DNA of 11,371 nucleotides from Candidatus Bathyarchaeia archaeon. Its GTDB lineage: Archaea > Thermoproteota > Bathyarchaeia > TCS64. Shown here one piece after another: positions 260-11,371 of the stretch. The notes beneath the pieces are model-generated. The model was not told the origin of the DNA. It saw only the letters and a program-made list of their open reading frames with translations, and made no database searches. Both the position numbers and the translations under genes were made by a program. The DNA is taken from NCBI GenBank assembly GCA_050014495.1, contig JBEKDF010000070.1, forward strand, positions 1 through 11,371, in the 5' to 3' direction. Each line of letters begins with the position of its first letter. Within the stretch, counting starts at the first letter, position 1.

Positions 260-2818
260 GTGAGCGTTCCCGACACCGAGTCTGACCTGAGATACTGGTG
301 GACACAGCCACGTGAAAGGCTATTAGAAATTCTGAAAACAGACCAATCTAAAGGCTTAGCAAAAGATCGGATCCTTGAACAACGATCAATCTACGGCTCA
401 AACACCTTACAGGAATTGAAACCCACAGATATTCCGACACTCCTCATAAAGGGCATCAAGCAACCCATGATGATCCTCCTTATCACAATCGCCCTAGTGT
501 CACTCGCTTTCGGTGAACTGCTTGAGGCATCTGTGATGATCTTCGTAGTAGTCGCATACATCTCGGTTGAGTTCATCAACAAGCTGCGGACCGATCGGAC
601 GATGGCTCGCCTCAGAGAACTCACACAACCAACCACGAAGGTCATTAGGGATGGAGAACCGCAAGAGGTTCCCACGTCCGAGTTAGTTGTCGGTGACTTA
701 ATTATACTTACATCAGGAGTCAGGGTACCCGCTGACGCACGACTTATACAAGCAAGTGGACTCGTAGTGAACGAGGCGACATTGACCGGCGAGTCGCTTC
801 CAGTGACGAAGAACCCCGAAGTTGAACTCAGACCAGACACTGCTCTAATCGACAGGGTCAACAGCGTCTTCACGGGAACAATCATCCTCGACGGAGAGGG
901 AACAGCCATTGCTATGGCTGTCGGTCAGGGCAGCGAGTTCGGTAAAATCGCTAAGGAAGTAATGGAGACGAGGAAGCAGCAGACCCCACTCCAAGCTTCG
1001 ATGAGGCAACTATCTAAGAGTCTCGCAATTTTCGCGATAGTCGTCAGCCTCATTATCCCTTTAATCGGGCTACTGCGCGGCCTTGACTTGAAGCAAATGG
1101 TGTTGACCTGGCTGTCCCTGGCCTTCTTAATGGTCCCGGGTCAGCCCCCCATTATCATCACGATGGCTCTGGCCCTAGCCTCCTTCGAACTGGCCCGGAG
1201 AAACGTCGTTGTGAAGCGCCTCAGCGGAGCAGAGGGGTTAGGATCAGTCACTTCGATACTGACCGATAAGACTGGGACCTTAACCGAGAACCGGATGATT
1301 GTTGATAAAATTGTCACACCGAGAGGAGAGGAGGTTACGTCCTCAAATGTTGCTAACGAGACGGCCCAGAACCTCTACTTCTCTCTTCCCAAGTTCCGTA
1401 GTGACCCAACAGACAAAGCAGTTGGGGAAGCTCTAAGCATCAAGGTAATAGGAGAAGAGCCCACCTCAGTCGCGTTTGAGGGGTTCTCCGACGGGCACCC
1501 ATGACGCGTCATTAGTTTCGGTATAGAGGGTAATTACATTCATAGGGTAGCGGGTAAGCCCGAACTTTTAGTAGATTCATCAAATCTGGGAATAGGCGAG
1601 AAGGATCGACTCAGAGCCATAATCTACAGTGAAGGGTCTCTAGGTAAAAGAGTGGTAGCCTTCGGGACAATACGATCCCCCACAAGAGAAGTCAAAGCGC
1701 TCAAGAACATTGATCTTACGGCTCTTGCTGTTCTCAGCGATCACGTCCGCCCAGGAGTCAAAGAGGCCATCAGCGACCTGAAAGTTGCCGGGATATCGAC
1801 TATAATCGTGACGGGAGATCACCCTGTTACCACAGGATTCGTAGCCAACGAGATCGGGTTGAAAGGGGAGATTATCACCGGTGACAAGCTTGAGAATATG
1901 AGCGACTCGGAGGTTCTTGATTCGCTTAGGTCCGTGAGCATATTCGCGAGGGCGACTCCCTCACAGAAGCTCCGTTTGGTGAAGATCCTCCAATCAAGTG
2001 GAGTGGATGTAGGGGCGGTAGGTGACGGCGTCAACGACGCTCCCGCTATTAGGTCAGCTAACGTAGGTGTCGCTATGGGTGAAATAGGCACAGATCTGGC
2101 AAAGGAGACCGCGGACCTTGTGCTGACAGACGATAACTACGTGCATGTTCGCGACGCGGTCGCGATAGGAAGGAAAGCCATCGATAATTTCCGAAAGGGA
2201 TTAACATATTACCTCTCAGCTAAGGCAATTCTTCTCTCGATATTCCTGGTTCCACTCGCACTTGGGATCCCCTTCCCATTAGCCCCAATCCACATCATCG
2301 TGATCGAGTTGTTGATGGACTTGGCTTCCTCTACTATTTTCGTCACAGAGGCAGCCGAGCCCGATGTTCTGAAGAGGCATCCCTCTAGGATGAGCGAGTA
2401 TCTTCAGGGTCCAATATTGAAAAATATTCTGAGGAATGGGCTTCCACTCGCGGTTGGAATCATGCTCGTGTACTTCACGACGTTTTATGCGACCGGTGAC
2501 TTGGTCCTTTCGCAGACGGCTGTTTTAGTCACCTGGCTCCTTGGACACATATTACTGGCGCTCAACCTCAAACAGGAGACGACACCTCTTCTAAAACAGG
2601 GCATTACATCGAACAGATTTGGATTATTCTGGCTTATCGGGATGATATCTTTAACACTGTTTGTCACAAACGTCGCTTCTGTCTTTGCGTACTTTAAAAC
2701 CACTTTTATCCCAGTTGGGATTTGGCTTGAAATATTGATTGTGATTTTTGGCGCGACGTTTTGGATTGAACTCCTAAAATGGTTTAAACTGAGAAGCCAT
2801 AGAACATTTGTCCAATGA
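260..2818 (+). pseudogene. Cation-transporting P-type ATPase (P2-like architecture) interrupted by one in-frame TGA at 1502-1504; 852 codons if read through
   Basis: ORFs 260..1504 and 1652..2818 share a frame. The gap translates without further stops (RVISFGIEGNYIHRVAGKPELLVD...GKRVVAFG) and includes AGKPE (KGAPE equivalent) and GKRVVAF. Other motifs: TGES, DKTGTLT, TGD, ARATPSQK, GDGVNDAPA and multiple TM helices. Confidence 0.85.
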
Positions 2819-2973: not shown

Positions 2974-3001
2974 GTGGGGCACCAACCCGCTTTTACTAGT
3001 A
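2974..3001 (+). repeat. 28-bp dispersed direct repeat, copy 1 (putative recombination site)
   Basis: GTGGGGCACCAACCCGCTTTTACTAGTA, lying between the convergent 3' ends of the ATPase and receiver genes. Confidence 0.92.
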
Positions 3002-3046
3002 AAGACTATCAAAAGTCCGAATAGGTTCATTTTTTTGAAGTTTAAA

Positions 3047-3457
3047 TTAAACGAATGGATGCATTTTAGTTGAAACAAGGCTTACTATCCGTTGAGCCAG
3101 CACGTTATAAACTGTTAAACTCGGCTCTTTCTCAATGATATCATCCACTCCAATCTGACGCGCACTCTTAGCCATACTCTCATCATCCAGAGCTGTGAAT
3201 AATATAAAGGGAATGTAATATCCCTCAGCTCTCAGCTTCTCAAATAGCTCAAGACCGCTCATCCGTGGCATAATATAGTTACTCACTAAGCAGTCGAAGT
3301 GCTTACCGTGGACTAACTCCAGTGCTTTCTCTCCGGAGTTAGCCTTCTCGAAGATGAGTGACTTATCTATTCCTCTAATAGCCGTCTCGATTAGTTCAAG
3401 CTGACACGGGTCGTCATCAACCAGCAGGACACGAATATTTGGGCTTGGTTGAATCAT
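3047..3457 (-). CDS. Stand-alone CheY-like receiver protein with Asn at the phospho-acceptor position
   Basis: Motifs VLLVDDD, FDCLVSNYIMPRMSG, IPFILFTA and DDIIEK. It aligns with the neighbouring kinase REC domain (FDCIVSDYQMPQMNG). Confidence 0.92.
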   Translation of the reverse strand: MIQPSPNIRVLLVDDDPCQLELIETAIRGIDKSLIFEKANSGEKALELVHGKHFDCLVSNYIMPRMSGLELFEKLRAEGYYIPFILFTALDDESMAKSARQIGVDDIIEKEPSLTVYNVLAQRIVSLVSTKMHPFV

Positions 3458-3529
3458 TGGCTAATGTCAGGGAACGGCGGAATTTAACAATAGAACTTTC
3501 TTCACAAGATGCTAAATGGTATTTTGCAC

Positions 3530-5674
3530 CTAGACCTTACTCTTTGTAAGTGGAAGCCTCATAATGAAGGTGGTCCCGGCGCCCACTTTGGACTCAAAGT
3601 CTATTGAGCCGCCCATTGCCTCAACAGCCCTCCTGCAATAGGTAAGCCCCAACCCCATACCACCAGACTTGGTGGTATAGAGAGGGGAGAAGATTCGCGC
3701 CCTCGACGCCTCAGAGATGCCGACACCTGTGTCACTAACACTTATTACAAGGTCTGTGACCCTCATCTCCACCATAACTGAGAGCCTCCCGCCCTTGGGC
3801 ATCGCCTCAACCCCATTCCTCACGAGGTTATCGATGACCCTGTGAATAATATCTGGATCAATGAGGATCGAATCTAGGCCATCCCCAATCGAAGTCTCGA
3901 CCTCCACATTACTCGGAATCGGGTTACCCTCTAAGACACGTTTGATCAACTTACCCAGATCAGATTTGATTGGCTGGGGCACGATCTGGCGGGTGCTCGA
4001 CCTCCAATCAGCGATCATCTTCAGCGACCTGACGGCGTTCTCCTCGACCATCTGAAGCATTCGGGGCGTGAGGCTCGGGTCCTGCTTGATCATGTTAACC
4101 GATTGCACAATCATCCCCAGAGGTCCGCGGAGATCATGTGCAACCGTGGCACCCATCTGCTCAACCGCTGTCACCACCTCGGCTCTCTGAAGCGCCTCTT
4201 GCAAACGCCTACGTCTCGTTATATCCCTCGAGATGACTCCGATTCCTGAGCCGACGCGGAAGACAGAATATAAAATAAAGATATCCTTGGAGACAAAACT
4301 GACACCCTCCAATTGCATCGACTCCCCGGTCCGGAGCACTTTATTGAAGGCTGCATAAAGATCAGTAGCTTCTATCCCCGGCAAGAGCTCCGTAACACCC
4401 CTATCAATGAAGTCGATCTTAGCCTTCCCAGCCGTGGATTTCATGAGAAGCCACCCGAGTTCAACTCTATTCAAGTCAATGAGGCGAAGATCTGAATCGT
4501 AAATTGCGAAGCCCTCATCTGTCGATTCCATGAAGGCTCGAAGCCGCTCCTCACTCAAGCGAAGCTTCGCGGCCCTCTCATCAACCATCCCCTCCAGCCT
4601 GTTCGCATATTCTTGAGTGATATCGTTGGCTACCCTAAGCTCCTCCTGCGTAGCCATTAACTCCTCATTAACAGATGCTAATTCCAAGTTAGTTGCCTGA
4701 AGTTCCTCCTCTGCCTTTTTCCTAGCCTTACGTTCTCGAATCGATAGGACTCCTAAGCTAATGTCTTCTGCAAGTTGCTTGAGGAGCTCCACTTCCTCGT
4801 TTGACCAAGGATTGGTTTCGCGTGAGTAGATGGAGATGGCCCCAAAGGGCTTACCCGACTCAGTTAATGGGTAGACTATGGAGGACGCGTACCCTCTCTT
4901 GAGGGCTTCCTCGCGCCATGGCTCGAACTTCGGGTCCGTGAGCATATTGCTGCAGATTGAAACCTCCCCCGTTCTGATCGCGGTCCCTGTTGGGCCTCGA
5001 CCACGCTCCGTGTCGGCCCACGTGATCCTCAACCCGGCTATGTATCCCTCGTCGAAACCCGCGTAGGCGACTGGTCTGACAGTCTTAACCTCATCGTTCT
5101 CGGCGAAGCCCACCCAGACTAGGTGGTAATCGGTGTCAGCGATAATATTGTTGCAGACCTCGTTGAGGTAGGAGACCTCATCGGTAGTTCTCACGAGGGC
5201 TCTGTTGCTGTCGCTGAGTGCTTTCAGGGAGCTGTTGAGGCGTTTCGCCTTCTGCTCCGCCTTGTTTCTTTGAACCGAGTGTCTGATCCTTCTAGCGAGT
5301 AGCTGGTAGTGTGCTATGGATTCCTCTTTCCTGACGTAGTCATCAGCCCCAGCAGCGAATGCAGCGGAGGCGATGTCTGCGCTCCCGTGACCGGTATATA
5401 TGATGAAGGGGATTGTGCTCGTTTTCCTGACTTCGGCGCAGAGCTGAATCCCATTCATCTGGGGCATCTGGTAATCAGATACGATGCAGTCGAAGTGGTG
5501 ATCTTTAAGGAGTTTCAGGGCCACGTTTGGAATGATTGTCGATGTGATTTTGAGTGATGGATCGATCGATTCTAGGTTGAGTGTCGTTAGATCGGTTTGG
5601 GCTTCTTCGTCGTCGATGAACAGTATGTTTATGATATCTACGTCGGTGGTTGTTTGATGTGACATGAAACCCAC
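3530..5674 (-). CDS. Sensor histidine kinase: REC - GAF - coiled coil - PAS-like - HisKA - HATPase_c
   Basis: N-terminal REC (IDDE, SDYQMP, YTG, VRK); GAF (VWVGF...GRGPTGTAIRTG...GAISIYS); H-box VAHDLRGPL; N-box NLVRNGVEAM; G1 DTGVGI; F IFSPLYTTK; G2 GMGLGL. The true start could be the ATG at 5665. Confidence 0.95.
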   Translation of the reverse strand: MGFMSHQTTTDVDIINILFIDDEEAQTDLTTLNLESIDPSLKITSTIIPNVALKLLKDHHFDCIVSDYQMPQMNGIQLCAEVRKTSTIPFIIYTGHGSADIASAAFAAGADDYVRKEESIAHYQLLARRIRHSVQRNKAEQKAKRLNSSLKALSDSNRALVRTTDEVSYLNEVCNNIIADTDYHLVWVGFAENDEVKTVRPVAYAGFDEGYIAGLRITWADTERGRGPTGTAIRTGEVSICSNMLTDPKFEPWREEALKRGYASSIVYPLTESGKPFGAISIYSRETNPWSNEEVELLKQLAEDISLGVLSIRERKARKKAEEELQATNLELASVNEELMATQEELRVANDITQEYANRLEGMVDERAAKLRLSEERLRAFMESTDEGFAIYDSDLRLIDLNRVELGWLLMKSTAGKAKIDFIDRGVTELLPGIEATDLYAAFNKVLRTGESMQLEGVSFVSKDIFILYSVFRVGSGIGVISRDITRRRRLQEALQRAEVVTAVEQMGATVAHDLRGPLGMIVQSVNMIKQDPSLTPRMLQMVEENAVRSLKMIADWRSSTRQIVPQPIKSDLGKLIKRVLEGNPIPSNVEVETSIGDGLDSILIDPDIIHRVIDNLVRNGVEAMPKGGRLSVMVEMRVTDLVISVSDTGVGISEASRARIFSPLYTTKSGGMGLGLTYCRRAVEAMGGSIDFESKVGAGTTFIMRLPLTKSKV

Positions 5675-5886
5675 GGAGTGGACTGATTATAGATGCGAGG
5701 AGATAATTAATCCTAACTATTTCACACGTGCGGGAGATTCATAGTTGGCGACAATCTAATGCTCCATAACTCAAGTAGATTCCTTCCGTATGGATGGCGA
5801 TTTTCTATCCATCATAAGTATTATTTAGGAATCATTCTAAAGGAACTGGTGTTATTTCTAGAGCCATATGTGTCTATATGGTAAAG

Positions 5887-5914
5887 GTGGGGCACCAACC
5901 CGTTATTAATAGTA
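5887..5914 (+). repeat. 28-bp dispersed direct repeat, copy 2 (putative recombination site)
   Basis: GTGGGGCACCAACCCGTTATTAATAGTA, lying between two co-oriented minus-strand genes. Confidence 0.92.
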
Positions 5915-6007
5915 AAATTGTCTTATCTGATAGTGAATTGGGGTATTTATCTAGAATTTTTATTCCAAAAGGATTGAATTAGCCATAATACAACTGGCCG
6001 GTTCACG

Positions 6008-6226
6008 CTAAGCGATTGCTGATTTATTTGGTGTACTCTCGATTTTCTTCCTTGGTTTCCAAAGAATTCCAATAAACGCCAATACTATCCCTACGATCAG
6101 TATTCCAAGAAGAGGATCTGAGAAGCCTCTTAGAATAAGCAGAACAGCACCTAATATCGTTAGGATGCATCCCATCAGGATAAGTCTCAATTTCATACTA
6201 TTCATACTTTTCACAGCCACTCCCAA
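6008..6226 (-). CDS. Small two-TM membrane protein, last gene of the ABC operon
   Basis: Two hydrophobic helices followed by a basic tail (KPRKK). It begins 18 nt after the permease stop. The start is uncertain and may be an internal ATG. Confidence 0.7.
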   Translation of the reverse strand: MGVAVKSMNSMKLRLILMGCILTILGAVLLILRGFSDPLLGILIVGIVLAFIGILWKPRKKIESTPNKSAIA

Positions 6227-6244
6227 TTCCGTTGAATCAAGTCA

Positions 6245-6988
6245 CTACTTCCATTTTGTCAGTATCTCCTCTCTTCGGAAAGTAGTCTTAGCGACATAAA
6301 GCAGAATCGCGTCAACCACTAACATGATGCCGGCTATGATGAGTAGGTCGTTTGCGACACCGAGCTGTACTATGCCGATTTCACCCGCGACGTAGACCCC
6401 TCCGAAGGGGAGTATCAAGAGGATACCAATCTGTTGCGCGACGCGAACATCACTCACCCTAGAAGAGACGATGACGTTCCACTCGACACTCATTATGGTT
6501 GCGAGAGGCACCATGAGGAAGAGTATGATGCCAGTGTTCCAGTTTGGGAAAAAGTTGTAGCCCAATGTGTCATATGTGACTAGATCCATGAGACCCATGA
6601 AGATCGCGGATCCTCCCAAGATGGCCACCATAGGCGGCAGAAATGCCGAGATGCCCTTTCCGAGCAGGATTTCGCCATCTGTAGTTGGTGTCGCCAGGAG
6701 TGGTTCGAGACTCTTCTCGACTTTCTCGCCTACGATGCTGTACGAGGCGAGGGTTGTCGGGATCAGGCCAGCGAGGATGAGGTAGAAGAATGTGAAAGCT
6801 GGGAGAAGCGTCGTGAGGACATTCGCTGGGATTCCGCTTGCGTTCCTGTGCTCGATAAAATAGATCAAGACAGGGAAAAGAATCGAGACGATTAGGGGGA
6901 CGATGATAATTGAGTAAATAATGTTCTTCTTCTTGAGAAAGACCTTGAAGTCCTTAGAGGCGACTATCCACGATTTCGAGAGTCTCAT
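6245..6988 (-). CDS. ABC-2 type transporter permease
   Basis: About six TM segments and the ABC-2 motif SIVGEKVEKSLEPLLATP...EILLGK. It overlaps the ATPase gene by 4 nt (ATGA). Confidence 0.92.
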   Translation of the reverse strand: MRLSKSWIVASKDFKVFLKKKNIIYSIIIVPLIVSILFPVLIYFIEHRNASGIPANVLTTLLPAFTFFYLILAGLIPTTLASYSIVGEKVEKSLEPLLATPTTDGEILLGKGISAFLPPMVAILGGSAIFMGLMDLVTYDTLGYNFFPNWNTGIILFLMVPLATIMSVEWNVIVSSRVSDVRVAQQIGILLILPFGGVYVAGEIGIVQLGVANDLLIIAGIMLVVDAILLYVAKTTFRREEILTKWK

Positions 6989-7905
6989 GTTGTCTGCCTC
7001 ACAAGCCTCAGGTAGGCGTCCTCGAAAGTTGAACCGACTACGGTTACCGTTTGAACGCCGCCGCCGGCTCGGACTATCACGTCAACGATCATTTGATTCT
7101 CTTTCTCTGGATTTGTTACGTTAATGATCAGCTTGTTGCCGTCAACGGCGATGTCCCCAAGCGGCAACCTCTTCACAGCGGCCATAATAGTGTCGTTCAT
7201 CTGATCTAGCTGGATCTCCGTCTTTCTGCCACCCACAGACCTTTCGAGCTCCTTCGGAGTGCCCACAGCCATCAGTTTGGTGTTCAGAATTGCTATCCTG
7301 TCGCAGATCCTCTGGGCCTCATCGAGGTTGTGGGTGTTCAGAAAGATGGTTCTCTTCTCCTTCTTGAGGTCGAGGATGAAGTCCCTGACCGTCTTCGATG
7401 CCTCCGGGTCTAGGCTAGCCGTCGGCTCGTCCATGATGAGTACCTGAGGGTCGTGTACAAGTGAGCGCGCTATCGCGAGTTTCTGCCTCATTCCCTTCGA
7501 GAACGTGCCCGCCGCGATGTTCCTCTTCTCCCAGAGGCCAAGCATCGTTAGCAGTCGTTGTATGTTTTTCCTTCTTTGCTCCTCCGTGCAGTCGTAGAGC
7601 TTACCGTAAAAGTCGAGGTTGTCGTAAGCACTGAGTTCGTCGTAGAGTCCCACGTTGTCTGGCACGTACCCGATTAGCTTCCTAATCTTCAGGGAGTCCA
7701 CCTCTTTGCCGACGTCGTAACCGGCGATTCTTGCCTCGCCGCTGGTCTTGGATATGAGGCAGCATAGCATCCTCACCGTGGTTGTCTTCCCCGCTCCATT
7801 GGGTCCGAGGAAGCCGAATACTTCGCCGTCGTTAACGTGCAGGGTGAGGTTGTCTACAGCGGTTAGGTCGCCGAATTTTTTTGTTAAGTTTTCTGTGTCA
7901 ATCAA
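6985..7905 (-). CDS. ABC transporter ATP-binding protein (ABC-2/DrrA-like exporter)
   Basis: Walker A GPNGAGKTT, signature FSKGMRQK, Walker B LIMDEP, H-loop THN. TTG start. Confidence 0.96.
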   Translation of the reverse strand: MIDTENLTKKFGDLTAVDNLTLHVNDGEVFGFLGPNGAGKTTTVRMLCCLISKTSGEARIAGYDVGKEVDSLKIRKLIGYVPDNVGLYDELSAYDNLDFYGKLYDCTEEQRRKNIQRLLTMLGLWEKRNIAAGTFSKGMRQKLAIARSLVHDPQVLIMDEPTASLDPEASKTVRDFILDLKKEKRTIFLNTHNLDEAQRICDRIAILNTKLMAVGTPKELERSVGGRKTEIQLDQMNDTIMAAVKRLPLGDIAVDGNKLIINVTNPEKENQMIVDVIVRAGGGVQTVTVVGSTFEDAYLRLVRQTT

Positions 7906-7978
7906 TTAGGTTCCCTCTTATAGAATCCAATCGGCAGACGGTATCCGCCTAACAAGATATGTAATCCCCAACATAGCA

Positions 7979-7989
7979 GCGCGCGCACG
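7979..7989. repeat. (GC)4 tract at the DUF1801/ABC junction
   Basis: GCGCGCGCACG lies about 10 nt beyond the DUF1801 stop codon. Confidence 0.8.
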
Positions 7990-7997
7990 GTCCAAGT

Positions 7998-8411
7998 CTA
8001 CCGTTTCCCTTTGCTCTCGAGATTCAAAGCTACGGCTTCACGAATGAGTTTCTTAAACGCAGCCTCATTGATCTCGTCGCCTTCATGGATGTCGATGGCG
8101 CGCCTGACGGTCCCAGGCTGGTTGAACAGGTGAGAGGGGTCCTCCAGCGAAGCACCTTTAAAGAAAGTGAGCTTGACCACACTCTTGTAGGTCTCGCCCG
8201 TGCAGATGCCTCCGTTGTGGGACCAGACTGGGATTCCAGGTGACGTAGGCTTCACCCACTTCCACTCTTCTATACTCTCCGGGTCCGCCTCCTTGATGAG
8301 CCTGCGCACTCTTTCAAGCGTCTCGCCCCGCCAATCGCTCAGTTCCTTGACTCTCTTGCTGATCAACTCAGACGCAGGTTCTTTTGATTCTGTCCTTTCT
8401 CTTGCACTCAT
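7998..8411 (-). CDS. DUF1801 (YdhG-like) protein
   Basis: Family-typical sequence WRGETL.RVR.LIKEADP...EEWKW...PVWSH.G.ICTGETYK..VKLTF.KGASL.DP..LFN...RRAIDIHEG. Confidence 0.88.
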   Translation of the reverse strand: MSARERTESKEPASELISKRVKELSDWRGETLERVRRLIKEADPESIEEWKWVKPTSPGIPVWSHNGGICTGETYKSVVKLTFFKGASLEDPSHLFNQPGTVRRAIDIHEGDEINEAAFKKLIREAVALNLESKGKR

Positions 8412-8439
8412 ATTATCACATTGAAATTAAAGTTTCATC

Positions 8440-8449
8440 TTTATATATA
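8440..8449 (-). promoter_or_regulatory. Putative TATA box for the DUF1801/ABC unit
   Basis: The minus strand reads CGAAC-TATATATAAA about 30-38 nt upstream of ATG 8411, and a GTGA SD-like motif lies just before the ATG. Confidence 0.6.
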
Positions 8450-8467
8450 GTTCGGCAAAGGTTGGCG

Positions 8468-8495
8468 GTGGGGCACCAACCCGATATTACTAGTA
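8468..8495 (+). repeat. 28-bp dispersed direct repeat, copy 3 (putative recombination site)
   Basis: GTGGGGCACCAACCCGATATTACTAGTA, lying between divergent genes. Confidence 0.92.
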
Positions 8496-8663
8496 GTTGG
8501 ATATTCTTGTAGAGCTACAATAAAGTTTAATGAGTCTAAACCCTGAACGAACAGAATTTAAAATCAGATATATTTGAGACACTTTTCTTCGCTCAGTGCA
8601 AGCTAATGCATGTGCTATAATAAATTCAATAACTTTTATTTATTCGGGCAAAGAATGTAAAAT

Positions 8664-9320
8664 ATGATGTTACACTTTCAGGAAAAACTTGAGGAAGCAA
8701 GATATTTCCTTCAAAAACTTGAAGAAACTCCTCAATATAATGTGCATGATAGAGAGTTTATGTATCTTCTCAGCGCTTTTCTTACTTCTTGGCGAAGTGT
8801 AACTGATTTGATATTATACGATTATGCGGAAATATTTAGTCTCGGTCTTTCTAGAGAAGATGATATAAGTCTTCATGATTTTGGACTAATAGCACGAGTT
8901 ACAAATAACTCTCAAGCACAGCGATTTCTTACGTGGTTTAATCAACAAGTAGGGATTCTATCAAACAATCCTCTCTGGAGGAAGCGTAACATAATAGTTC
9001 ATAGAGGTTATCCCCCTACAATGCGAGTATATTCATTGTATCTATCAGGATCAATAGCATTATCAGCATCAGTAGCATTATCAGCTTCGTTAACTGTAAA
9101 TCAACCCGCAGGTTCCGGTGGCTCATCAGGAATACAGCAACCTATCAGCGCTCAATCTGTCCCGACGACAAACGTTCCAGTAGTAAACTCACCTGCAAGC
9201 GCAGTCCCTCAAATCAGGTTTGTTGATCTACCAGAACAAGGTGTAATTGATAGCTGTAGACAAGCAATTGCTCTGATGCAGGACTTTGTCAATTCAGCGT
9301 TACAACAATTCGGTAGTTAG
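8664..9320 (+). CDS. Hypothetical protein, putative HEPN-like RNase (RxxxxH)
   Basis: AT-rich 218-aa ORF with a helical N-terminus (EKLEEARYFL...LSAFLTSWRSV) and RNIIVH at aa 108-113. The family assignment is inferred from the motif only. Confidence 0.6.
   Translation: MMLHFQEKLEEARYFLQKLEETPQYNVHDREFMYLLSAFLTSWRSVTDLILYDYAEIFSLGLSREDDISLHDFGLIARVTNNSQAQRFLTWFNQQVGILSNNPLWRKRNIIVHRGYPPTMRVYSLYLSGSIALSASVALSASLTVNQPAGSGGSSGIQQPISAQSVPTTNVPVVNSPASAVPQIRFVDLPEQGVIDSCRQAIALMQDFVNSALQQFGS
9051..9086 (+). repeat. In-frame 18-bp tandem duplication (SIALSA/SVALSA)
   Basis: TCAATAGCATTATCAGCA followed by TCAGTAGCATTATCAGCT, 16/18 identical. Confidence 0.8.
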
Positions 9321-9680
9321 AAAAAGTAAGAACGCATGCGCTTGTCTTACGTTATTATATTGACGCCTTCTTTGGCCTTGGAAAATTCACCATTAGGCTA
9401 TAAGCAGTAATTTGAAGCGTTCTAAATTTAACCGAAACCATAATTACCTTTTTCTCTTTATTTCTATTTGGAGAATAGTTTGAGTCATCAATGTTTTCTC
9501 GTCACAGATTCTTTGATGATGACGAGTATAATGAGTGTGAAAATGAGGGTGGATCGCCAGCGATCACACCCTACGACAACACGCTTTTGCGCACGTTTTC
9601 TAGACGTAGGTTGCTAACCCTTTGCCGCAATAATAGATTTGCGCGAGATTATTTAAGATTGAACCACAGCTTATCCTTTA

Positions 9681-10406
9681 ATGACGCTTCCTGATAATGA
9701 CCCGGCGAAATGGCAATACCAAGAACATACGGCAGTGAAGCATCAGATTCTCGATGGCTACTTACATACTTGGATTTCAATATTGGGTGGATCAAACCTA
9801 GAGCTAGGATACATCGACGGGTTCGCGGGAAGAGGGGTCTATCAGGATGGGTCGATAGGCTCCCCTATAATTGCTATGGATACTGGTCAAAATCAAATCA
9901 GTAAGATAAATCGAAAGCCCTATGGAATGAAGAAGTTTCGATGCTTCTTTGTAGAAAAGAATGTGGATAACTATTTTTGCCTAAAAGAGCAGGTTGAAAG
10001 CCGGAAGTCAACTTGTCCAGATGTGATACCTGACATACGAAATGGAGTTTTTGAAGAACACGCCACTGAATTTATTGAAGTATCTAAGAAAATACCTACA
10101 TTGTTTTTCATAGACCCCTTTGGCTGGGAAGTTCCATTTGAGATTATCAAGGGAATATTAGATAACCTCCGTACTGAGATTCTATTCACCTTCATGGTCT
10201 ACGACATCAACAGGTTTCTAGGGAGTACCGCACATCAAGCAAGTCTGAATAAACTCTACGGAAGCTCAGTCTGGAAAGATTGTCTGGATAGTGAAGATAG
10301 AGAAAGTTGCCTAGTAAATCACTATCTAGATTCGATAAGAAAGGCGCGCGCGCGAAACTATTCTGTGAAAAGTTCTTGCCCACAACTAACTCGGCAGACG
10401 GCGTGA
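9681..10406 (+). pseudogene. tcmP: Three-Cys-motif partner protein (TcmP-like, SAM-dependent methyltransferase fold), apparently 3'-truncated at about 10343
   Basis: Motifs HTAVKHQIL..YL..W..ILG, YIDGFAGRG, GSP, FFVEK, LFFIDPFG and EILFTFM. Family-like sequence ends at YLDSIRK, exactly at a (GC)5G tract. The last ~20 codons run into the hydrolase gene and look non-homologous. Confidence 0.75.
10344..10354. repeat. (GC)5G tract at the tcmP/hydrolase junction
   Basis: GCGCGCGCGCG; the sequence is AT-rich to the left and more balanced to the right. Confidence 0.9.
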
Positions 10407-11143: not shown

Positions 11144-11226
11144 ACCTGCGCGCTCATATAGTAGATCGCCGCCACCGTCACGCTTGCCGCCGTCACCAAT
11201 ACCCCAATCGTCTGCGCATCGACCAT
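11140..11226 (-). pseudogene. 5' fragment of a membrane-anchored hypothetical protein gene, cut at GCGCGC
   Basis: Translates MVDAQTIGVLVTAASVTVAAIYYM-SAQV*, with a GTGA SD-like motif before the ATG. From recall it resembles the N-terminal TM helix of a longer archaeal hypothetical family. It stops just after GCGCGC (11148-11153). Confidence 0.6.
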
Positions 11227-11266
11227 AGAATCACTGAAGAAGAATCAGATGGAAGTGAGGATAAGG

Positions 11267-11371
11267 CTATTCACTCTTGAACAACGATGGGAAAGCCCTC
11301 TCCCAGCTCCCCTTCTCATAGTAAATCATGTTCCCTCTATAGCTAGAATCTACTCTGTACATCATTTTCGC
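11267..11371 (-). CDS. Possible 3' end of a gene entering from the right edge
   Basis: The frame is open from the edge to TAG at 11267: AKMMYRVDSSYRGNMIYYEKGSWERAFPSLFKSE*. No recognisable motif. Confidence 0.35.
   Translation of the reverse strand, partial: AKMMYRVDSSYRGNMIYYEKGSWERAFPSLFKSE

Follow-up and report, generated by a model that had tools for sequence, protein, structure and literature searches.

Islands that grow by accretion, the cis-mobilizable elements (CIMEs) within them and their composite excision and transfer have been described, e.g. for islands related to ICESt1 and ICESt3, in which decayed integrase-less elements keep their att sites and are stacked with an intact element at one target (PMC5704250). 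Likewise, the ssrA islands described in Dehalococcoides form tandems of several islands downstream of one RNA gene, with repeats of its 3' end, and 15 of them are without integration modules (PMC3146451). Archaeal elements are reported to re-use one site (PMC6563490), and archaeal att and dif sites are covered in PMC8371274. Here, we analyzed an 11,371-nt stretch from a Candidatus Bathyarchaeia archaeon (JBEKDF010000070.1; "the window", i.e. the whole of contig C70 of the 3.1-Mb, 92-contig host genome G000), which carries three copies of a 28-bp direct repeat and is for the most part covered by runs from peat or wetland metagenomes. The repeats are very probably attR-type junctions of an integrase system that targets tRNA-Leu, rather than dif or attC sites. 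An earlier note had taken them for site-specific recombination sites, which is borne out by a tRNA-derived continuation of the site and by breakpoints at it; among the analogies it offered, that with tandem islands is the fitting one. Judged by its sequence, the system works like a tRNA-targeted accretion island.

The three copies start on the + strand at 2974, 5887 and 8468 (spacing 2913 and 2581 bp) and align with 25 of 28 positions invariant and the first 16 identical, as the earlier note had stated. These 16 nt are the longest word that occurs three times in the window, and 200 shuffles reach at most 11. Gene content and the convergent, tandem and divergent contexts of the copies likewise match the earlier description. 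The flanks had been called unrelated, which is not wholly the case: copy 3 has an extra 55-nt arm (8497-8551) common to other loci. The exact 16-mer occurs at one further place in G000, C31:32991, in a fourth copy with the sequence of copy 1, to which a unique 35-nt overlap between the end of C31 and the start of the window assigns the window coordinate -141. When G000 was scanned with a profile of the repeat, four sites scored 47.7-50 bits within 8.6 kb and the next-best match, on C6, 22.2 bits (shuffle maxima 17.3-20.9 bits). The copies are thus clustered, in a single orientation, within an accessory array. The right end of the window shares a 122-nt overlap with C34 that is also common to C78 and lies inside a repeated gene start, and no placement is possible there.

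Read on the minus strand, the repeat consists of the palindrome TTACTAGTAA, a T-arm-like 13-mer and the 6 bp CCCCAC of the tRNA-Leu 3' end. The site, whose origin had been left unknown, is built on the 3' end of a tRNA-Leu gene. Scans of the window for tRNAs and Rfam families gave no match, and the link becomes visible only through the C31 copy, the minus strand of which runs into a perfect 16-nt tRNA-Leu 3' end common to the TAG (C40) and CAG (C21) genes. TTACTAGTAA, the AT-rich half of the repeat, also stands directly after the tRNA-Leu(TAG) gene. The distance from the start of the T-loop to that of the palindrome is 25 nt in all seven integrase loci tested. These come from four Bathyarchaeia genomes and from three viral contigs (tRNA-Ser, tRNA-His and tRNA-Leu), and the geometry of the arm is shared by viral contigs that use other tRNAs. 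Where no integrase was present (two more loci), the same distance of 25 nt was obtained in one case and no match in the other, and a search of viral contigs with the repeat pattern and a generic arm pattern returned 0 matches. The reconstructed element site has two palindromes 32 bp apart, for Leu and His targets alike. The central 6 bp between them are CCCCAC, where the window repeat stops, and we infer that this hexamer is the crossover. An alternative crossover centre, derived from the inner symmetry TGGTGC/GCACCA, is missing in five of five other genomes tested and in the His site, and the centre set by the palindromes is preferred.

Across 71 genomes of the family, the arm directly after a tRNA was found in 28 (5 control hits), and of 30 such loci inspected, 22 stand at the end of a tRNA gene call (19 Leu, 3 Gly). 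The attR pattern was detected in 26 of the 71 genomes, with 43 matches as against 1 in the control, and positions left unconstrained in the search are conserved as well (G in 42 of 42). In viral contig L173 (5101-5393), the same arm is followed by a tRNA-His 3' fragment and then by only the C-terminal 75 residues of an integrase, which is a decayed tandem junction in another archaeal lineage.

The earlier note had placed the recombinase outside the window. Indeed, the window holds no integrase remnant, and the cognate tyrosine integrase was found on C40 at tRNA-Leu(TAG). There, the tRNA gene (C40:6479-6563) is followed by the palindrome, a gene for a 173-aa accessory protein and, overlapping it, the gene for the 330-aa integrase (C40:4931-5923; PF00589, E 3.8e-24), in which the catalytic residues R171, K197, H273, R276 and Y308 are invariant. 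The palindrome may serve also as an operator beside the start of the accessory gene. Among phage records there is no close named integrase, the best reaching 23-29% identity. In its core and arms the system resembles SNJ2, described as having a short core at the tRNA 3' end, conserved P/P' arms and overlapping upstream accessory gene(s) that encode a coiled coil and a winged helix (PMC5861418). In contrast to the two accessory proteins described there, a single three-domain protein is predicted here: its model shows two short helices, a 43-residue helix and a winged-helix-like C-terminal helix-helix-helix-hairpin (mean pLDDT 76). Its best Foldseek matches are winged-helix regulators and are not significant (E >= 0.06); no significant PDB sequence, fold or PHROG match was obtained, and the label "ribbon-helix-helix" is weakly supported. 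The Gly and Ala substitutions at the Glu/Asp and His/Trp sites, given as signature of SNJ2-type integrases (PMC5861418), are absent from the C40 integrase, which has Glu174 and Arg-Gly-Asp 297-299 instead. Against the XerA model NF040815 (cut-off 220) the C40 integrase scores 127 and a recombinase on C9 160; a host XerA was not firmly identified.

G000 has further tyrosine recombinase frames at C44:18614-19894, C18:40320-41312 and C9:23861-25264, which overlap or adjoin the genes for tRNA-Leu(CAA), tRNA-Pro and tRNA-Gln. A second integrase type at a Leu tRNA is seen in locus L207 (G016 C20), where a different 265-aa open reading frame (ORF) lies behind tRNA-Leu(TAA), and a long duplicate of the 3' part of this tRNA follows 8 kb downstream (L207:8392 and 16559).

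Integrons, including archaeal ones, are described as arrays of small cargo with one site per unit and one recombinase (bioRxiv 10.1101/2022.02.06.479319), which the window resembles. Unlike cassettes in that description, the cargo here has its own promoters and lies in both orientations, the site is tRNA-derived and the integrase is not IntI (26 bits with TIGR02249, cut-off 265). An attC identity was rejected as well: the copies share no hairpin, their z values range from -0.3 to -2.7 with differing structures, and Rfam gave no match. For the repeat to act as a promoter, operator or terminator, or as a dif site in several copies, is scarcely credible. One copy scores terminator-like, but the terminator count equals the shuffled mean (4 vs 4.7). 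Xer/dif and pdif sites are defined in PMC8371274 by an 11-6-11 inverted repeat and a single chromosomal dif, whereas the best 11-n-11 arm complementarity here is 4-5 of 11 and there are four copies. None of these readings fits a tRNA-derived continuation with breakpoints at the site, and all are contradicted by the comparison of an occupied with an empty locus. In the occupied locus L111, the DNA behind the arm matches, with 98.7% identity, what lies behind the empty tRNA-Leu(CAG) on G000 C21, and the identity starts at the first C of CCCCAC. A near-empty tRNA-Leu(TAG) is present in G003.

Because of the C31 overlap and the synteny with genomes G012 and G016, the window is placed as the predicted distal end of an island at tRNA-Leu(TAG). 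In G012, the same tRNA-Leu(TAG) has the C40 genes upstream and one site 3.7 kb downstream, followed by the C31 genes; in G016, the entire island of 18.8 kb lies on a single contig with an integrase that is 91% identical. Intact tRNA-Leu(TAG) on C40 and the displaced 3' fragment in the same orientation on C31 agree with the arrangement used by Islander, i.e. an intact tRNA plus displaced 3' fragment with the crossover in the T-stem/acceptor (J) region (PMC4383910), and G016 provides the single-contig case. Islander as described counts tandems only if each member has its own integrase (PMC4383910); the window copies keep only 6-7 bp of the tRNA and would be missed. In line with a prediction of the earlier note, synteny breakpoints in relatives coincide with the repeat: homology starts or stops there in four locus pairs, namely G012 C2/L112 (606 bp, 86%), L108/L112, L115/L120 (1027 bp, 85%) and G012 C2/C6. 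Islets that have both ends but no integrase are present in G012 and G053; G002 has a left end that likewise lacks an integrase. In L038 (10068-10207) and L168, on contigs C7 and C26 of G016, a tRNA-Val 3' fragment follows a Leu-type site at a distance of about 100 bp; the two close a 4.8-kb duplicated block, and therefore sites of different tRNAs nest.

The anatomy of the site, its position inside an island, the intact integrase linked to it, the breakpoints that fall on it and the damaged state of the inner sites are observations that can be combined in a full model, which we consider probable. An element with two TTACTAGTAA arms 32 bp apart would integrate via the CCCCAC crossover, whereby the tRNA would be restored and the old 3' end displaced. 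Resident elements would lose their left arm and integrase and turn into CIME-like islets, and a newcomer would insert at the tRNA, ahead of the residents. By excision from the tRNA end to the outermost intact site, the stack could then be carried as a unit to a new host, and only the outermost site would be renewed. The inner sites would be scarred at the edge of the crossover, probably through abortive action of the integrase, and would lock in their cargo. The 173-aa accessory protein likely binds the palindromes. Compared with the CIMEs described (PMC5704250), the host here is an archaeon, the modules are very small, inner junctions are without left arm and scarred at the crossover, and no transfer module was identified. 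The intact attL and attR that define each CIME unit are lacking at the window junctions and were found, by sequence, only in the G012 and G053 islets. Compared with Dehalococcoides, where PMC3146451 describes the serine recombinase DsiB, a tmRNA target and many members with an integration module, integrase or accessory remnants followed the site in 0 of 40 cases here.

The damage follows a polarity. In seven of seven multi-site arrays, the outermost site is a perfect tRNA-Leu end and every inner site is damaged (1-8 mismatches in 14), with four sites in G000 and three in L112, all in one orientation; the third L112 site was missed by the array pattern search and shown to be damaged by locus comparison. 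The window copies carry 1-2 changes in 22 arm positions; their agreement with the tRNA ends no more than 1-2 bp from the predicted edge of the crossover, and their right half-sites match the tRNA end at 3-5 of 11 positions. Accordingly placed deviations are frequent among genus-type sites, 18 of 25 of which first deviate at positions 17-23. This count is partly circular and leaves out L118 (same as the window), L116, L119 and L110 (weak, in unrelated gene context), G070 (left arm read backwards) and G016 C26 (near-duplicate of C7); L114, L117 and L118, being near-identical to G000, do not count as independent. Moreover, a pair of 4.8-kb duplicates in G016 shows 46 differences, of which 8 are located within the 33-nt core (binomial P ~2e-10), and any upstream window has at most 5 differences. 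The core is a mutation hot spot in these duplicates, where strain mixture or assembly error is possible.

Simple stacking explains neither the polarity, nor the lack of integrase at the sites, nor the core hot spot. In the simplest model, elements insert stepwise at the tRNA in this lineage and then decay neutrally; the stack is immobile and the integrase has no part in the damage. The C-rich core is prone to slippage, and deletions at GC runs do remove left arms in G012 and G062. However, this model predicts the outermost and oldest fragment to be the most decayed, the reverse of what all seven arrays show, and leaves the hot spot unexplained; we regard it as quite improbable.

Some chance, if a small one, is left to integron-like single-site cassettes. 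Here, circles that lack an integrase and carry a single arm-plus-core site with a right flank of their own would insert at the outermost attR, the left core of which mimics a T-arm; the resident integrase would act in trans, the intact tRNA end would stay outermost and each inner junction would bear a flank specific to its cassette. This predicts the polarity directly, as well as the scarcity of left arms and integrases at inner sites, the intact arms of these sites and the small modules; the position at which all three window copies leave the tRNA sequence and the occurrence of one damaged flank behind two left flanks (G012 C2/C6) also fit. Yet there is no example of a module whose two ends recur in two contexts, the contents of modules are also met apart from one another and lacking such sites, and the window right half-sites match poorly, as given above. 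In addition, many of the damaged sites (L113, L115, G012 C4) are clearly recognizable as tRNA ends that have suffered small deletions, a known kind of damage: PMC4383910 describes small deletions that end 3 bp before the discriminator, and L113 fits. Contigs of 8 of 20 listed runs contained no circle and no 2913- or 2581-bp skip joint, which is a weak negative since contigs drop rare forms and the tRNA end lay outside the stretch compared.

Less likely still are secondary-site events, in which the arm was joined to non-tRNA look-alikes, either by off-target integration or by an in-cis deletion that ran from a full junction to a downstream look-alike and removed the older integrase module. Orphan sites away from tRNA-Leu and the clustering of end points at the crossover edge agree with such events, as does G002, where DUF1801 homology (96%) ends in the core of copy 3 and no palindrome is present. 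However, the G002 sequence could just as well be this junction in a more decayed state, truncated at a GC run, and a partner site (tRNA end plus left arm, no tRNA) is missing in G000 and was seen for only about 3 of 30 candidates family-wide. The alternatives partly overlap one another.

Several findings weigh against the accretion model that we favor. The arrays behind the polarity count include kin that are not independent, and "outermost" is anchored to a host flank or attL only in G000, L112 and G048. The sharp drop in conservation after CCCCAC in the genus set is partly circular, as the search profile covered the arm. Family-wide, only 1 of 42 sites keeps a left arm; with the 0 of 40 integrase remnants, loss of left arm and integrase must therefore be nearly always complete if the model holds. 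Sites distant from tRNA-Leu exist in G012 (C2 and C6), in G046 behind tRNA-Asn and in G016 (C7/C26), and weak copies on C6 and C43 of G000 are not near tRNA-Leu either. On C2 and C6 of G012, the same damaged right flank stands behind two left flanks that differ, a pattern suggestive of exchange at a site already damaged. No contig spans C40 to the window, the link consisting of the 35-nt overlap and the synteny. Finally, neither excision, circle nor transfer was observed, and no transfer genes were found.

Two further claims of the earlier note are not supported. The intervals between repeats are not coherent fixed modules: the DUF1801 gene and the ABC operon are found apart and without sites in relatives, so that the module 5887-8468 is composite and not a conserved unit. 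The ABC block sits among core genes in G012, and the corresponding locus in G000 lacks it; DUF1801 stands by itself in three genomes (G002, G012 and G016), with the homology in G002 breaking off inside copy 3. Nor do the intervals appear to be currently mobile, as the right half-sites are destroyed and skip joints were absent from the contigs. In one contig of run X19, a GC run connects the 3' end of DUF1801 with the copy 3 arm (side of 32 nt; a lead only).

The literature searched contained no description of this arm or module in Bathyarchaeia, though supplementary att tables of provirus surveys may hold such sites. The system is likely a main route by which accessory genes (signalling, transport, defence-like) enter this Bathyarchaeia family, and the repeat is a precise marker of island ends that searches for tRNA fragments would miss. 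The two-palindrome site with its fixed 32-bp spacing and the dedicated accessory protein are conserved between Bathyarchaeia and viral contigs, across Ser, His and Leu targets, and provide a compact system for how an archaeal integrase switches tRNA targets and controls direction. Polarity rule and core hot spot make the origin of "damaged" att fragments testable. Should damaged inner sites still recombine, the system would represent a novel analogue of integrons. The corresponding idea, which is tentative and which we consider unlikely, is an archaeal platform for gene capture throughout the family that functions in the manner of an integron on the tRNA-Leu att site: resident integrase and accessory protein would insert and excise integrase-less, single-site cargo circles at the outermost attR, and the resulting arrays would always have an intact last site and, at inner sites, flanks that are specific to the cassette and scarred by the integrase. 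The features of the window are compiled in Table 1.

Table 1. Features of the 11,371-nt window.
Feature	Position	Strand	Remarks
Inner att junction 1	2974..3002	-	Palindromic arm 2993-3002; T-arm-like 13-mer 2980-2992; predicted 6-bp crossover 2974-2979; tRNA end lost past the crossover
Inner att junction 2	5887..5915	-	Arm 5906-5915 (2 changes); 13-mer 5893-5905; predicted crossover 5887-5892; right half-site matches tRNA end at 3/11
Inner att junction 3	8468..8496	-	Arm 8487-8496; 13-mer 8474-8486; predicted crossover 8468-8473; right half-site matches tRNA end at 4/11
Extended element right-end sequence	8497..8551	-	80-93% identity to sites in L108, L109, L112, L113
Unique 35-nt overlap with end of C31	1..35	+	C31 bears the intact outermost site at -141
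P-type ATPase cargo, outermost site to junction 1	260..2818	+	Split by in-frame stop 1502-1504; contigs of runs X4 and X11 give no alternative letter
Cargo between junctions 1 and 2	3047..5674	-	Receiver protein 3047-3457; receiver-GAF-PAS histidine kinase 3530-5674
72-aa ORF, ABC-2 permease, ABC ATPase	6008..7905	-	78% identical block among core genes in G012, without repeat sites
DUF1801 gene	7998..8411	-	96% identical copy in G002; homology stops at 8471, within junction 3
Right end of next element	8664..10406	+	218-aa ORF without family match; TcmP homolog truncated at GC run ~10343-10353

Relative to L114 and a contig of run X4, about 150 bp are absent from the window at 2864/2865 (152 letters between). 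The piece is unmatched elsewhere in G000 and resembles coding sequence; with it, the leftmost module would measure about 3.27 kb. Alternating GC runs mark breakpoints of modules or genes at 214-223, 7979-7986 and ~10343-10353, and GCGCGC is 5.7-fold enriched in intergenic DNA throughout G000. DUF1801 homology in G002 and G012 stops at 7986, the end of the second of these runs. Positions 11155-11271 belong to a gene family that is highly repeated (dozens of copies, spread over many small contigs) and cover its start and the region upstream, which is the cause of the contig break; two ORFs on C40 that look similar to this family are DUF4760. The stretch 6246-6283 at the permease stop codon is matched in all 8 runs by many unrelated contigs with loose ends on both sides, and is possibly a conserved C-terminal word of ABC permeases.

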